DNA of 64,000 nucleotides from an uncultured Phycisphaerales bacterium. Lineage in GTDB: Bacteria > Planctomycetota > Phycisphaerae > Tepidisphaerales > Tepidisphaeraceae. Below the pieces are notes generated by a model. It made no database searches. It was not told the DNA's origin and was given only the letters and a program-made list of their open reading frames with translations. Positions 20,782 through 28,207 of this stretch are shown in pieces; position 1 is the stretch's first letter, and each line of letters opens with the position of its first letter. The stretch lies in the NCBI GenBank assembly GCA_963758525.1, contig CAVWVQ010000003.1, forward strand, positions 1,216,001-1,280,000, given 5' to 3'. The translations under genes and the position numbers were made by a program.

Positions 20782-21990
20782 ATGCCTCCCGCATCGAGCG
20801 AAAAAACCCAGCCCTCACGCAGAGAGCCGGACGCGAGGGAAAATCATCCGGATTCCCCAGATCGGCGCAGCGAGGATGGCCGTCGGAAAGATCCATCGCA
20901 GAAGTCGTCGGACGGAGAAAACGACAAAGACGAAGAGAAGGGCGAAGCGGAAGAAAATCCGCACGATAACAAGCCGCCGCCGTGGCATCGGCCGATCTTC
21001 TGGATCGTCACGGCGATCGTCCTGATAGTGGGATTGGCAATTGGAATACCCTGGTGGCTGCATGCCCGCTCGCACGAATCGACGGACGACGCGTTCATTG
21101 ACGGGCATACCACCAGCGTCAGTCCGCAGGTCGCCGGGCAGGTCATCAAGTTGCGGGTTGACGACAATCAGGATGTGAGCGAGGGGCAGCTTCTGGTGCA
21201 GATCGATCCGCGCGATTTCCAGGACACCCTGGCCGAGGCCCAGGCCGCGGAAATGGTGGCGGAGAATCAACTTGCACAATATCAGTCGATGGTGCTGGTG
21301 AATCGGGCCCAGGAAGCGTCGAGCCAGGCGGATGTCGTGTCCGCCCAGGCAAACGCTGATCAGGCTCATTCGGACGCGCAGCGATATCGCAGCGCCGAAG
21401 CCGGCGCGGTGTCGCAGCAACAACTTGATAATGCGACCAACAATGAAAGGAGCACCGCCGCGGCGCTGCAGGCGGCAAAGGCGAAGCTTGCCGCGGCATC
21501 GGCACAGGTGGCCAGTGCGCAAGTGCAGGTGAAGACCGCCGAGGCGCAGGTGCGCGAGCAGCAGACGCGCGTCGCGGATGCGAAGCTGCAGCTTTCCTAC
21601 ACCAATATCCACGCGCCGGCCGCGGGACGTGTCACGAATCGTCACGTGGAGGTCGGCTCCTACGTGCAGATCGGTGAGGCGCTGATGGCGCTGGTGCCGC
21701 GCGACGTCTGGGTCACCGCCAATTTCAAGGAGACGCAGTTGCGGTACATGCACCCGGGCCAGTCGGTCGAAATCAAGGTCGATGCGTATCCCGACAGAAC
21801 GTTCTGGGGCCACGTCGATTCGATCGCGGCCGGCAGCGGAGCGGCGTTCAGTCTGCTGCCGCCGGAGAACGCCACGGGCAACTACGTGAAGGTCGTTCAG
21901 CGCGTCCCGGTGAAAATCGTGTTCGATCAGACGCCGCAGGTGCTGATGGCGCCGGGGATGTCTGTGGTGCCGGAAGTGGCGCTCAAATGA
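20782..21990 (+). CDS. emrA: EmrA/HlyD membrane-fusion protein
   Basis: ESTDDAFIDG, ANFKETQL and FSLLPPENATGNYVKVVQRVPV. Confidence 0.93.
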   Translation: MPPASSEKTQPSRREPDARENHPDSPDRRSEDGRRKDPSQKSSDGENDKDEEKGEAEENPHDNKPPPWHRPIFWIVTAIVLIVGLAIGIPWWLHARSHESTDDAFIDGHTTSVSPQVAGQVIKLRVDDNQDVSEGQLLVQIDPRDFQDTLAEAQAAEMVAENQLAQYQSMVLVNRAQEASSQADVVSAQANADQAHSDAQRYRSAEAGAVSQQQLDNATNNERSTAAALQAAKAKLAAASAQVASAQVQVKTAEAQVREQQTRVADAKLQLSYTNIHAPAAGRVTNRHVEVGSYVQIGEALMALVPRDVWVTANFKETQLRYMHPGQSVEIKVDAYPDRTFWGHVDSIAAGSGAAFSLLPPENATGNYVKVVQRVPVKIVFDQTPQVLMAPGMSVVPEVALK

Positions 21991-23595
21991 CGGCGGCGGC
22001 CAGCGATCTGTCATCGCACGGGCGAACCGCGCGATCCGTTCCGGTCAGTCCCTGGCTCATCGCAATTGTCGTCTCGATGGCGACGTTCATGGAGGTGCTC
22101 GACACGAGCATCGCCAACGTCGCCCTGCCGCACATCGCCGGCGGACTCTCCGCCGGACAGGACGAATCCACCTGGGTGCTCACCAGTTACCTGGTTTCCA
22201 ATGCCATCGTGTTGCCCATCAGCGGCTGGCTCGCTTCCATCATCGGGCGCAAACGCTTCTACATGGGATGCGTCGCGCTTTTCACCGTCAGTTCGCTGCT
22301 CTGCGGCTTCGCGCCCAGCCTGGGAGCGTTGATCTTCTTTCGCGTCCTCCAGGGAATGGGAGGAGGCGGGCTCGCCCCCAGCGAGCAGGCAATCCTCAAT
22401 GACACCTTCGACGAAAGGCAGCGAGGAATGGCCTTTGCGCTCTATGGCGTCGCGATCGTCGTCGCGCCGGCCGTCGGTCCGACGCTGGGCGGATGGATCA
22501 CCGACAACTATTCCTGGCGATGGATTTTCTTCATCAACGTTCCCGTTGGACTCTTGTCCCTGTTTCTCTCCCATCTGCTGGTTCACGATCCGCCGGATCT
22601 GGTAAGGGCGCGGGAGAAGAGGGCGAAGCAGCCGTTGAACATCGACTTCGTCGGCTTTGCGCTGATCGCGCTCGGTCTTGGCAGCCTGCAGGTCGTTCTG
22701 GACAAAGGGCAGCGGGACGATTGGTTTGGCTCTCACTTCATCGTCTTTTTCTGCATCACCGGCGCCTTTGGAATCATCGTCGGCATCTTCTGGGAGCTCT
22801 ACCGGAAAGATCCGATCGTCGATCTGCCGCTCATGAAAGATCGGACATTTTTCGTCAGCAATCTCATCATGTTTATCGTGGGATTCGTTCTGTTCGGCAG
22901 CACCGTCCTCATTCCCCAGCTTGCCCAGGAACTGCTCGGATATACCGCAAAAGACGCAGGCCTGCTGATCACGCCGGGAGGGATCGCGGTGATGGCGCTG
23001 ATGCCGCTCGTAGGCTTCCTCACGTCGCGCGTCGCCGCCCGCTGGCTGATTCTGCTCGGGCTGGTGATCTCGGCGCTGTCACTCTATCACCTCAGCAAAC
23101 TCACCCTCGACGTGGACTACTGGACGCTCGCCCGCGCCCGCATCTACCAGGCGTCGGGCATCGCGTTTCTCTTCGTTCCGATCAACACCGCGGCTTATGC
23201 CGGCCTGGCGCAACAAGAGCAACAACGCTTCGGCCATTCTCAATCTCTTTCGCAACCTTGGTGGCAGCGTTGGCATTTCGGTCGTGACGACAACCCTCGC
23301 CCGGCGCGAGCAGGCGCATGATGTGTTTTTGGGAAGCCATCTCAATCCGTTCAATCCGCGCTTTGTTTCGGCGATGGCGAGCACCGTGCGGACGCTGGAG
23401 CAGCAGGGCATTCTCGCCGCGCAGGCGACACATCAGGCGCAAGGCGTGATCGTGCGATCGATGTATCGCCAGGCCGCGATGCTCTCGTACCTCGACGCGT
23501 TTCAACTGCTGGCGATCAGTGCCGTCTGCATGATTCCGTTTGTGTTCCTCTTGAAGAAAAACAAGCCGGGGAAGGGCGGGGGAGCGGCGCACTGA
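21987..23595 (+). CDS. emrB: EmrB/QacA DHA2 MFS efflux permease (frameshift at ~23210)
   Basis: MEVLDTSIANVALP, WVLTSYL and WRWIFFINVP. The next frame continues with NLFRNLGGS. Confidence 0.93.
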
Positions 23596-23779: not shown

Positions 23780-24652
23780 CTACGTCTTGGCGATTGAACA
23801 TGCATCGGTTTCGACCGCGATCCGCTCCCGCAGCGCCTCGTGCAGTGACCGCGTGACTTCCCCGCATTGCCCCCCCGCCACTTTCAGGCCGTTCCAGGTT
23901 CCGACCCAGCTTACTTCACGCGTCGTGCTGGTGATGAATAATTCGTCGGCGGCGATTGCCTCTTTCTCTGGGAGTGGTCTTTCTTCAACTGGTATGCCGA
24001 GCGTTCGCGCGCAATCGAGCAGCACGGCACGTGTTATTCCCGGCAGGACGCGCGCTCCGACGGGATGGGTGACCAGCCGGTCTTCGATCACAGCGAAGAG
24101 ATTGCTCGCGGCACATTCGCTTACGATGCCGCGGTCGACGAAGACCGCTTCATCAGCGCCGGCCGCAATCGCGGCATTTTTTGCCAGCACATTGGGAAGC
24201 AGCGCGATCGATTTAATCCAGCAGCGATGCCATCGCTCGTCTGCGACGGCAAGCAGTCGCACGCCCTCACCCGTGCCAGGGGCGGGGACGGGCGGCAAGG
24301 GACGGGCGTAGAACAGGAGCGTGTGCTGAACGGCATCGGGGAAGACGTGATTCCGCGGCGCCTCGCCGCGGGTGAGCTGGAGATAGACCATACCATCGCT
24401 GACGGCGCTGGCGGCGATCAGCTTCTCAATTTCGCCGGCGAGCGCAGCCGGCGCGATCGGCAGTCCGAGCTGAATTCCCGCGGCAGACCGCTCCAGCCGA
24501 TTGAGGTGATCCATCTGTCCAAAGGCTTTGCCGTTATAGAGACGCAGGACTTCGTAGACGCCGTCGGCAAACTGGAAGCCGCGATCCTCGACGCCGAGGC
24601 GGGCTTCGGACATCGGGATGATTTCGCCATTGAGCCAGATGCAGTCGTTCAC
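23780..24652 (-). CDS. Class IV PLP aminotransferase (D-amino-acid aminotransferase-like)
   Basis: DRGFQFADGVYE, YLQLTRG, IKSIALL, LPGITR and ELFITST. Confidence 0.9.
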   Translation of the reverse strand: MNDCIWLNGEIIPMSEARLGVEDRGFQFADGVYEVLRLYNGKAFGQMDHLNRLERSAAGIQLGLPIAPAALAGEIEKLIAASAVSDGMVYLQLTRGEAPRNHVFPDAVQHTLLFYARPLPPVPAPGTGEGVRLLAVADERWHRCWIKSIALLPNVLAKNAAIAAGADEAVFVDRGIVSECAASNLFAVIEDRLVTHPVGARVLPGITRAVLLDCARTLGIPVEERPLPEKEAIAADELFITSTTREVSWVGTWNGLKVAGGQCGEVTRSLHEALRERIAVETDACSIAKT

Positions 24653-24793
24653 GGTATCTCCTGCGTATGATTCCCTTATAATCGGCCGAGCGAGATGAAT
24701 TCCACTGAAACAATTTCAAAGTCGCACGGTGGGAACCGTCGAGCTGCTTGTTCTCACCTCCCGTGGCAAAATACACGGCATCAGGAAAGCAAG

Positions 24794-24837
24794 CCCCTAC
24801 CCCAGCCCTCCCCCGGAGTACCAGGGGAGGGGGAAAG
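24794..24837. repeat. Palindromic repeat family C (CCCTCCCCCGGAGTACCAGGGGAGGGG)
   Basis: Near-identical copy at 25316-25358. Relatives are at 9800-9826, 25222-25250, 27462-27580 and 47117-47147. Confidence 0.85.
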
Positions 24838-24846
24838 CGGTGCCTG

Positions 24847-26094
24847 ATGTCGCAGGTGCCCGCGTGGGACGACTCATTGCTTCGCGATCCGCATGCCGTT
24901 GCCGACAAGCGCGGCCGGGTGCAGCGGATGTTCGCGGCCATCGCGCCAAGCTATGACCTCAACAATCGGCTGCACAGCCTGGGCATCGACCAACTCTGGC
25001 GGCGCAAAGCGGTGAAGCTGGCGCAAATCCGCCCCGGCAACGTGATTGTCGACGTCGCCTGCGGCACAGGGGATCTCACGCTTGCCTTCGAGGCAGCCCG
25101 GCAGCGCGTGGGCGGCACGGGCCGAGTATTCGGCATCGACTTCACCTTTGAAATGCTTCCGCCAGCGCGGCGGAAGGCGATTCGCGCGGGCGGCGGCGAT
25201 GGCAAGCCTGGCGAATCTTCCATCCCCTCGCCTGGTACTCGGGGGGACGGGAAGGCAGGAGCACTGGCTGCCGAAGGTCGCTCGAGCGCGATAGATGGCC
25301 TGCAAACCGCGCCGCCCCCACCCCGGCCCTCCCCCGGAGTACCAGGGGAGGGGGAAAGATACACTTCGGAAGTTGCGGCGAGCGCCGATGGTAATCGAGG
25401 GGAAGGCCGGGAAGTCCTTGGGCAAAGCTCTGGCTCTGCTCCGGCGCGCGGGCGATAAGCGAGATCTCGATTCTTTTGATCTTCGGACCACGCAAGCTTC
25501 TGCTCCGGCCCGCGCGGGCGATAAGCGAGATCTCAATTCTTTTGGTCTTCGGCCCAGACAAGCTTCAGCTCCGGCGGCGCGGACGATAAGCGAGGGGAGG
25601 TCAGAGAGGCCCGGGAAAGCGACGGCCCAAAAACTCTGGCGAACATGTCGCAGACTTCCGCCGCAGGCTCGCCCGCATTTGCCGTGGGGGACGCGCAGTC
25701 GCTGCCGCTGCCGGATGCGTGCGCGGATGTGGTATCCATCGCATTTGGCATTCGCAATGTCGCCGATATCGCGGCCGCGATGGCGGAGTTTCGCCGCGTG
25801 CTGCGACCGGGGGGGCGGCTGATTGTTCTTGAGTTTTCGCTGCCGACAAATCCAGTGCTGCGCGGCCTGTACAATTTTTATTTCCGCAAGATTCTTCCCT
25901 GCACGGCGACGCTGATCAGCGGCGACAAGACCGGCGCGTACAAGTATCTGCCGGAATCAGTCAACACGTTCATCGGGCGGGAGCAGATGATCACGATGAT
26001 GCAAGCCGCTGGTTTTGAGAGAGCCGAGCAGTTCGCCATGACGTTCGGCGTTTGCATTTGCTACCGAGGCGTCGTGGGCGGGGGCGACGTTTGA
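24847..26094 (+). CDS. ubiE: MenG/UbiE C-methyltransferase with a large repeat-derived insertion
   Basis: VQRMFAAIAPSYDLNNRLHSLG, DVACGTGDL and GIDFTFEML precede the insert (~25185-25665). GDAQSLP, IAFGIRNV, RVLRPGG and AYKYLPESV follow it in the same frame. Confidence 0.85.
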
Positions 26095-26096
26095 TC

Positions 26097-26172
26097 GGTC
26101 TGATTTGAAATTTGAAATTTGAAATTTGAAATTTTCAGATTTCAGATTTCAGACCTCCTCAGATTTAAAATT
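26097..26172. repeat. Heptamer hairpin (ATTTGAA)x4 / (TTTCAGA)x3 between convergent genes; possible bidirectional terminator
   Basis: Repeats read directly from the sequence; GGTCTGA pairs with TCAGACC at the stem ends. Confidence 0.75.
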
Positions 26173-27413
26173 CAGTCTCCGGAATCCTCCCATCGGCCGA
26201 CCAGCGTCTGCGAGCCATCTTCTGCCTGATACTCACCGGCAATTTTCAGATGAGGGCTAGCGTAGATGTCCTGCGCCATTGCCGCAAAGGTGGATCGTGC
26301 CGGGTCCGGCGGATGCCGATCCGGCTCGGCCTCGATTGCCGCGCTAACAAAGGCAATGGCCAATCGCGGCTCCAGATGAAATCGGAATGCAATCGGCTGA
26401 TCGTCACCGGTGCAGACGAGCCGCATCCGTGTCTGCGCGAGTTGCGAATGGGTGAAAAAGATCGGATGCACCAGGCCGCTTGCCGAAAACGTCGTGTCGA
26501 GCGCGACTGGCGAAGAGAGCCAGGTCCACTGGTCTTGCTGCGTAAGGGAAGAGGAATTGATGACCACTCGAGCGGCCAGCGTGCTGAGCGGCGTCTGCCG
26601 GCTTTGCCAGAGGAGCCAGAGCATTGATGCGACGACCGCCACCGCGCCGACGCCAAGCAGGCCGCCACGCGATCGCAGCAGGGACGCGCCAACCATCAAC
26701 GCCGCGACGATCAGGCCTGCAAACAGTGCCCGTCGGCGAACGGCAAATGGCAGGCCGCGCTCCCAGCCATAGGTCGGGCCATACGCGGCGGGCGCGATCA
26801 GCGCTTCGGGACCGATGCGATCGTGCGCGACAACCCAATACTCTCCGGCGCGCTTCCAAGGCCACGCTCCGCCGGGACGGCGCTGCGAGCGGATCGCCAC
26901 GATCGTTCCCCCAGCGAGAAGCGTCCGCAGTTGCCGCTCATTCACCCGCGCGGCGGCGTTCTCGTCGAGCAGCACGCCGTCGAGCGCTTCCCAGGCGCAG
27001 GGCGGCCCCGGCAGCGGATTGGCCGCATCCAAATGCACCGCCACAATGTCCAATCCCGGGAAAAAAGCATTCGCGTCCCCCACGTCAACGCCTGCCAGTG
27101 CCACCAGGCGTTGCGTGTCGCCAAGCGGCTCAAGATGAACGGGAAGCAGATGGACGCCGGCATCGGTCCAGCCGACGTTCTGCAATCGCCCGGAGATCGC
27201 CAGCCAGGGAACCGTGGCGTCGATGCCGCCGGAGTTTGTCGAGATGGCCGTGGGCAATGCGCCATCGCCGGTGATCGCGACCTCTCGGGAAGTGATCCCG
27301 CTGCCGACCACGTGAACCGGGATGTAGCGTCCCGGACGATAGTGATCTTCCAGCGGAAAGGTGACTGCGACATCCCCGGACGCCCAAGAGGGAATGAGCA
27401 GGCCGAGCAGCAT
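26172..27413 (-). CDS. Hypothetical secreted/membrane protein
   Basis: Signal-like N-terminus, 'YRPGRYIPV', 'WEALDGVLLD' and two TMs. The start is uncertain because the upstream frame runs through repeats. Confidence 0.7.
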   Translation of the reverse strand: MLLGLLIPSWASGDVAVTFPLEDHYRPGRYIPVHVVGSGITSREVAITGDGALPTAISTNSGGIDATVPWLAISGRLQNVGWTDAGVHLLPVHLEPLGDTQRLVALAGVDVGDANAFFPGLDIVAVHLDAANPLPGPPCAWEALDGVLLDENAAARVNERQLRTLLAGGTIVAIRSQRRPGGAWPWKRAGEYWVVAHDRIGPEALIAPAAYGPTYGWERGLPFAVRRRALFAGLIVAALMVGASLLRSRGGLLGVGAVAVVASMLWLLWQSRQTPLSTLAARVVINSSSLTQQDQWTWLSSPVALDTTFSASGLVHPIFFTHSQLAQTRMRLVCTGDDQPIAFRFHLEPRLAIAFVSAAIEAEPDRHPPDPARSTFAAMAQDIYASPHLKIAGEYQAEDGSQTLVGRWEDSGD

Positions 27414-27559
27414 GCAGAGCGCAGCCGTTGTCGAAAGTGCGCCCGATGCCGACGCCCGCTTGCCCCCTCTCCCGGTACTCCGGAAGAGGGTCGGGGTGAG
27501 GGTGCTTTGGAGCACCAACAGCCTACGACGCTCCAAATCACCCTCACCCCAACCCTCTC

Positions 27560-28207
27560 CCGGGGTGCCGGGAGAGGGGGTCGCGCGCCCGCGTCGCGGT
27601 AGGGCGGGATTCATCCCGCCACGGCTTTCGGCACCGCGAAACATCGGCGGGATGAATCCCGCCCTACATTCTGACCACTGCGGACCGGCTTGTCCGTTCA
27701 CGTCTTCACGTCTCACGTTTCAGTATCTTCCCGTCACGTTCCAATCACCCATTTTCTCTCACATCGCGATCTCCGGGGTATCGGGAGAGGGCGTCGCGCC
27801 CCGCGTCGCGGTAGGGCGGGATTCATCCCGCCACGGTTTGCGGCACCGCGAAACATCGGCGGGATGAATCCCGCCCTACATTCTCAGCGCCGCGGACCGG
27901 CTTGTCCGTTCTCGTCTTCACGTCTCACGTTTCAGTATCTTCCCGTCACGTTCCAATCACCCGTTCCCTCTCACATCACGATCTCCGGGGATGCCGCGAG
28001 AGCGAGTTGCACCCTGCCGCTCTGTAGGGCGGGATTCATCCCGCCGCGGCTTTCGGCACCGCGAAACATCGGCGGGATGAATCCCGCCCTACATTCTGAC
28101 CACTGCGCACCGGCCTGTCCGTTCACGTCTTCACGTTTCACGTTTTCAGCATCTTCCCGTCACGTTCCAATCACCAATCACCCGTCCCCCTCTCACATCC
28201 CGATCTG
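27560..28207. repeat. Three tandem ~212-bp units, each with a GTAG REP doublet
   Basis: GTAGGGCGGGATTCATCCCGCC...GGCGGGATGAATCCCGCCCTAC at 27599-27667, 27811-27879 and 28024-28092. Each is followed by a TCACGT-rich tract. Confidence 0.93.

Follow-up and report, generated by a model that had tools for sequence, protein, structure and literature searches.

The menG gene of an uncultured Phycisphaerales bacterium is probably a continuous, working gene, the product of which carries a predicted disordered loop of ~153 residues between helix B and strand 3 of its methyltransferase fold. The gene lies in a 64,000-nt stretch of DNA (the window, G000:C3:1216001-1280000) of the source genome G000, which is assembled as 6.47 Mb in 6 contigs; plain positions below are those of the window. 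An earlier note, made without database searches, had offered two readings, either a quinone methyltransferase enlarged by a very long loop of repeat origin, or a split gene or pseudogene; the first of these is favoured by the GCGC signature of the two frame breaks, by the undecayed state of both halves of the gene and by there being no paralogue.

Table 1. Features of the menG locus and of related hairpin repeat loci.
Feature	Position	Strand	Remarks
TATAAT, likely -10 box	24677..24682	+	12 nt before ancestral start
Ancestral menG start (MNSTETI), 50-codon leader ORF	24695..24847	+	TGA 24845-24847 overlaps ATG 24847
Hairpin copy in ancestral 5' end	24793..24837	+	50.4 bits vs the genome's own repeat profile
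MenG/UbiE N half	24847..25185	+	SAM-binding motif I, strands 1-2, helix B
Loop region holding the insertion	25186..25671	+	predicted disordered, pLDDT mostly <50
Inverted doublet of 45-bp hairpin repeat	25219..25358		left arm 25219-25263 degenerate; right arm 25314-25358 near-consensus
66-bp unit, 2.4 tandem copies	25435..25594	+	locus-specific
First frame break	25444..25449	+	copy 1 is 2 nt short; overlapping GCGC sites; likely assembly deletion
Second frame break	25573..25580	+	copy 3 is 1 nt short; likely assembly deletion
MenG/UbiE C half	25672..26094	+	strands 3-7; TIGR01934 positions 91-221
IleRS-type ORF	L206:3-2732		single in-frame hairpin copy
HsdM ORF	L205:1125-2858		single in-frame hairpin copy
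Metallo-beta-lactamase-fold ORF	L203:685-2001		single in-frame hairpin copy
DUF4011/helicase ORF, 1215 codons	L204:4323-7967 (G000:C3:3988578-3988913)		unbroken
Hairpin-bracketed DUF559 gene	G000:C3:1103306-1103629		
Hairpin-bracketed DUF559 gene	C3:1210856-1211138 (L207)		

The two halves of menG lie in one frame, as had been claimed, with inner boundaries at ~25185 and ~25672. The N half corresponds to TIGR01934 positions 1-82 and its ORF extends to a TAA at 25456-25458; an in-frame ATG at 25645 precedes the C half, 27 nt before strand 3. As assembled, the menG frame contains three stops (TAA 25456, TGA 25477 and TAA 25522). The motif-to-motif distance is 693 nt, compared with 237 nt in L137 and 219 nt in L138, its closest relatives (83-84% identical), giving an insert of 456-474 nt beyond these relatives. 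The in-frame position given in the earlier note stands, whereas its size of ~160 codons is refined to 152 codons with respect to L137 and 158 with respect to L138. The insert is composed of a hairpin-repeat doublet and 2.4 copies of a 66-bp unit. A 7-nt direct repeat (25352-25358 and 25613-25619), on either side of a 261-nt part of the insert (87 codons), is possibly a target duplication, and is indistinguishable from chance.

The description of the 66-bp unit in the earlier note proved accurate, both in the number of copies, i.e. copy 1 (25435-25498, 64 nt), copy 2 (25499-25564, 66 nt) and a partial copy 3 (25565-25594), and in that, compared with copy 2, copies 1 and 3 lack 2 nt and 1 nt, respectively, at the same spot; the peptide quoted there, APARAGDKRDL(D/N)SF(D/G)LR..QAS, is encoded in frame +1. 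The further claim that restoring 3 nt gives a continuous ORF holds in that switching frame at both breaks yields 161 stop-free codons, which was seen in 45 of 5000 shuffles; however, all four switching paths tried are stop-free, so stop-freeness does not single out the register proposed in the note. An alternative register, with 1 nt lost from copy 1 and 2 nt from copy 3, is also stop-free and has a codon score of -0.107, versus -0.18 for the proposed one; it is possible, although less parsimonious, since it needs extra real indels. The low codon score of the insert (-0.18; median of real genes 0.20, off-frames lower than the insert) counts against a continuous gene, as does the observation that no difference between copies 1 and 2 is synonymous in the note's frame. 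With respect to the origin of the unit, a 31-nt pattern derived from it had no exact match in the metagenome and genome contigs, and 49 of the 140 family genomes gave matches, all of them short (18-47 nt; best E 4e-4). A match of 29-31 nt at C3:2829989 lies inside an unrelated ORF and was treated as chance.

The errors of the assembly were surveyed using 806 ORFs from 1.2 Mb of the same-genus genome G001 (5.4 Mb), the sequence of which is assumed to be correct. Among the 359 genes with a clear G001 orthologue, 58 are frameshifted in G000 (~16%), with 60 sites in 342 kb that are mostly losses of 1-2 nt (27 of 1 nt, 16 of 2 nt). After 14 unplaceable sites had been dropped, 37 of the remaining 46 breaks (80%) lay within 3 nt of a GCGC, compared with 8.8% of random windows. 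The frameshifted genes include those for EF-G, AspRS and PNPase (recognised by sequence), which we presume to be essential; this argues for errors rather than biology. Further GCGC breaks are present in an mqnC/mqnE-type gene (C3:2336400) and in a DUF559 gene, and a 2-nt break in the same CCGGCGCGCGG context as in menG occurs at C3:4065942. Both repeat-defined menG breaks are at GCGC, and the GCGC at 25577, the only one between 25525 and 25670, is the sole such site allowing a return of frame. Given this coincidence with the deletion signature of the assembly, we read both frame breaks as errors, i.e. as likely assembly deletions, a judgement based on the orthologue-derived signature. Elsewhere in the window, an MFS (DHA2-like) transporter gene (21987-23595) has a frameshift near 23205, at GCGC, that is likely of the same type. 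More generally, GCGC deletions make about a sixth of the genes of this assembly (the ~16% above) look broken, and its apparent 'pseudogenes' and 'split genes' need care.

With GCGC sites miscalled at a rate of only ~1% (about 48 of 4222 sites), a pair of errors that compensate each other inside 135 nt is a rare event a priori, with a probability per gene of about 0.2% by our own estimate; we accept it because the alternatives call for rarer events. With respect to local context, shifts were found at 0 of 9 coding GGCGCGCGCGG sites and at 0 of 9 sites with the context of copy 3, and on first count at 3 of 7 sites with the context of copy 1, of which inspection left one clear, one ambiguous and one at a neighbouring GCGC. 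A general tendency for (GC)4 runs to be miscalled was unsupported, such runs not being depleted genome-wide. When contigs of three DNA runs were compared with 24700-26200, the only full match was that of X1 at 24830-25017, an independent contig that confirms 188 of 188 letters, and 25018-25916 was unmatched from this organism; as no read or contig of the organism crosses the latter segment, we infer the menG errors. X2 contig rows at 24893-24896 were set aside, because the X1 contig disagrees with them and the X2 contig is not among the long clean pieces. Methylation of GCGC may be the cause of the errors. The only cytosine C5 methyltransferase locus (L209:335-3575; G000:C3:1631729-1634969) is itself apparently frameshifted and is neighboured by a divergent ORF that by eye resembles N4/N6 methyltransferases and by a downstream ORF of 318 aa; it was not linked to GCGC.

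Several lines of evidence are consistent with menG being intact. Read through, with X at the stops, it scores 214 bits with TIGR01934, compared with a curated cut-off of 158.35; the halves scored separately (78.2 and 139.9 bits) fall below the cut-off. Of the 103 columns in which at least 90% of 96 relatives agree, the SAM-binding motif included, the halves keep all 103, as do 28 of these 96 relatives; the comparison set includes one protein from the unpublished genome G004, of which the result is independent. By our own estimate, neutral drift over the age of the 66-bp copies would be expected to have changed ~10 of the 103 columns. The divergence between these copies, which apparently arose in place, is 9%, implying that selection acted on the core as the insert grew older. 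Compared with L137, dN/dS is 0.086/1.006 (about 0.09), and for the intact pair L137-L138 it is 0.086/1.076. A second menG/ubiE, an intact copy of which would in the terms of the earlier note have made this an ordinary pseudogene, was searched for and none was found in the genome, menG being single copy. Genes of the futalosine pathway are present in G000 and menG exceeds the TIGR01934 cut-off in 125 of 141 family genomes; by its family and by the presence of these pathway genes, the product would methylate demethylmenaquinone.

In an AlphaFold model of the frame-0 read-through, 235 residues have a pLDDT of at least 90 and the insert is mostly below 50, a low-confidence loop being placed between the helix at 101-115 and the strand at 277-280. 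The frame-0 input differs from the proposed protein at ~43 loop residues, and the deep alignment folds the core regardless; as a prediction, the model informs on loop position, not on enzyme activity. Its top fold match is yeast Coq5 (PDB 4obw). Removal of the insert at the RNA level, which had been raised in the earlier note, found no support: an Rfam search of 24600-26300 gave six weak matches, all under and none near the gathering scores and none within the insert, and folding of the insert was not in excess of that of shuffles (z -0.70).

The 5' end of menG has also been reorganised. The proteins of L137-L139 begin MNS[TS]ET just 3' of a conserved TATAAT, and TA[TACG]AAT lies at the same upstream distance in 7 of 8 relatives compared; a two-hexamer promoter scan gave 0 sites. 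Approximately 134 nt, including the hairpin copy, now part the ancestral start from the rest of menG, out of frame. While the earlier note was correct in finding the segment 24793-24837 nearly identical to the right arm of the doublet (96% over 45 nt), this segment is not intergenic in origin, falling within what was ancestrally the 5' end of menG. Because the 5' stretch is without GCGC, we read it as a real insertion that was rescued by a new, likely coupled start; that the ATG at 24847 is this new start is likely, and a third assembly error, upstream of 24830, is possible instead. That the start region recurs ahead of the C half (25613-25653) was considered and rejected, 323 of 2000 shuffles scoring as high.

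If the assembly is instead correct throughout, the enzyme may have been domesticated around repeats twice, via the coupled leader and via a repeat linker enabling either a gene split or a 138-nt hop, a combination that we consider unlikely; in this reading, menG would be a case of repeat-driven gene fission caught under full purifying selection. As a split gene, menG would have divided after growth of the linker, and its two products, an N piece of 203 residues that stops at TAA 25456 and a C piece of 149 residues that starts at ATG 25645, would reassemble into an active enzyme. Purifying selection on both halves and the in-frame ATG before strand 3 are consistent with such a split, as is the 5' end, which seems to show that a new start was gained after a real out-of-frame insertion, but the ATG at 25645 has neither a Shine-Dalgarno-like motif nor an overlapping stop, and the resemblance of its surroundings to the 5' start region is not significant. 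In the sheet order of class I methyltransferases, 3-2-1-4-5-7-6, strands 1-2 would moreover be flanked by strands 3 and 4, which belong to the other piece. Since the split also needs two real indels, both at GCGC and with a sum of 3, leaving the old path still stop-free, we regard it as quite unlikely.

The three stops in the assembled sequence could alternatively reflect a recent pseudogene, in which an in-frame loop was followed by real slippage deletions that inactivated menG and left the cell with demethylmenaquinone. CG runs can slip and some bacteria live on demethylmenaquinone; however, if another deletion followed the inactivating one, the gene was drifting, whereas 0 of the 103 conserved residues have changed, and the lack of a paralogue, the retention of the gene across the family and the fit of the breaks to the assembly error signature make inactivation very unlikely. 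The frame shared by both halves, together with the matching CGA codons before the TAA at 25456 and in frame at 25591, with a stop directly after the first, could suggest that the segment is skipped in a correctly assembled gene, by a ribosomal hop over 138 nt, by stop read-through or by excision. The matching codons are, however, a by-product of the repeat, and the gap is far longer than the bypass in T4 gene 60, which is of 50 nt; read-through would have to pass three stops of two kinds, and with respect to excision there is no intron-like Rfam match or excess folding. We consider skipping the least probable of these readings, and extremely so.

The hairpin repeat, copies of which are present in both altered regions of menG, is abundant in the genome, a profile search giving 347 hits that include 91 inverted doublets, of which 31 are of 126 bp. 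The earlier assignment of the insert doublet to a repeat family holds, 25223-25358 matching three other genome loci over 135-138 nt at 73-78%. This doublet folds into one long stem, and the changes in its left arm fall on third (5), second (5) and first (0) codon positions. By a strict test, 6 of 245 hairpin elements lie in a continuous coding-like ORF; four of these six are in frame in named G000 ORFs (IleRS-type, HsdM, metallo-beta-lactamase-fold and DUF4011), the insert in the DUF4011/helicase ORF consisting of a doublet and two more tandem hairpin units in frame (336 nt). The consensus of 228 copies has GTAC in the loop and no GTAG or CGTC tag at its ends, and no obvious target-site duplication was found in 14 doublet flanks. 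Two of five DUF559 loci (a small sample) lie between two inverted hairpins in doublet orientation, while only 1 of 23 Y1-transposase matches (PF01797) has a hairpin within 400 nt, compared with 4% of random sites. The hairpin-bracketed DUF559 gene is a candidate spreader of the repeat, of whose cassette the doublets may be miniature versions. Literature searches on in-frame palindromes in Planctomycetes, on DUF559 with repeats and on Tepidisphaer* with menaquinone and repeats, covering mostly non-subscription journals, listed no article on the element. Repeats of several more families, a hairpin doublet at 27460-27580 among them, occupy 27300-28170 of the window, upstream of and overlapping the apparent start of a minus-strand ORF (26172-27716); the ORF has no Pfam or NCBIfam match, and its true start is probably near codon 90-95.

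The menG loops of relatives show that the site is tolerant, independent in-frame repeat inserts having hit the same two loops. We examined 132 menG loci, partly picked for long loops; both motifs were found in 112, of which 110 are in frame. The spacing reaches 432 nt; the 52 longest loci are free of stops, and the two frame-shifted loci are from genomes of at most 10 contigs. The extra length is always in the two loops flanking strand 2. The same hairpin doublet is present in frame within the menG loop of L117 (G149), and the loops of others hold inverted repeats (L043, L129) or heptamer runs (L032, L122). The loop index is ~180 here, compared with 62-72 for the largest in relatives, a ~3-fold difference that counts against the continuous reading, and a weak search for longer homologues gave six proteins of 358-544 aa, mostly with terminal extensions and none with a comparable loop. 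Heptamer runs that face each other (ATTTGAA / TTTCAGA type) are also present at 26100-26170, directly downstream of menG; runs similar to these are translated in the MenG loops of L032 and L122. The genome search reported one internal stop each for the menG matches of L025 (G022; TAG) and G123:C12:855211 (TGA).

If menG is continuous, as we favour, a hairpin doublet of the DUF559-associated family would have inserted in frame into the loop, further DNA would have accreted there and the 66-bp unit would have been amplified in place, with selection preserving the enzyme core and keeping the total length divisible by three. Translation from the ATG at 24847 would be coupled (TGATG) to that of the 50-codon leader from the old ATG, and the product would be a demethylmenaquinone methyltransferase of ~416 residues acting at the last step of futalosine-pathway menaquinone synthesis. 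The loop itself is likely tolerated rather than functional, and a continuous menG would be an extreme example of a working gene that tolerates internal repeats.

With respect to known systems, the enzyme resembles MenG/UbiE/Coq5 (TIGR01934; yeast Coq5, 4obw) in sequence family, fold, conserved residues and single copy, and shares with the menG of its relatives synteny with a divergent D-amino-acid transaminase gene; it differs in the ~153 extra residues in the loop between helix B and strand 3, the displaced start and the two assembly breaks. In the portion of the published account available to us, Rickettsia palindromic elements (RPE) are described as palindromes of ~130-150 bp that lie in frame within housekeeping genes unrelated to one another, where they seem compatible with the fold (PMC10969869). 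The present repeat is likewise a multi-copy palindromic element in frame in unrelated conserved genes, a likeness in manner of working; as far as that account goes, it differs from RPE in lineage, in that most copies are outside coding frames and in that the menG insert is composite and ~3 times the size of one RPE. The same two loops, hit independently within one family, provide a natural length series, which bears on the question posed by RPE of whether such inserts are merely tolerated or are raw material for new protein parts.

Intragenic REP hairpins, according to the sections available of a second account, include many inverted dimers with spacers of 20-100 bp, some inside ORFs, and dimers or clusters of the GTAG and CGTC families encode 20-30 and up to 43-82 residues (PMC3733652). 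The present elements are similar in being short hairpins that form inverted dimers and clusters, partly inside ORFs. Within the limits of those sections, they are unlike GTAG/CGTC REPs in that the ends of their consensus lack either tag, although the REP set may include related families, and unlike REPs in that it is DUF559 genes, and not Y1 (RAYT) transposases, that their hairpin pairs enclose. With respect to MITEs, inverted arms of fixed spacing were observed, and no obvious target duplication in the flanks inspected. If continuous, menG would encode a ~260-residue enzyme with a wholly repeat-built loop, beyond the 43-82 residues described for REPs in the sections available, of which longer examples may exist. 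The menG insert is thus a variant, in size and layering, of known in-frame repeat insertion.
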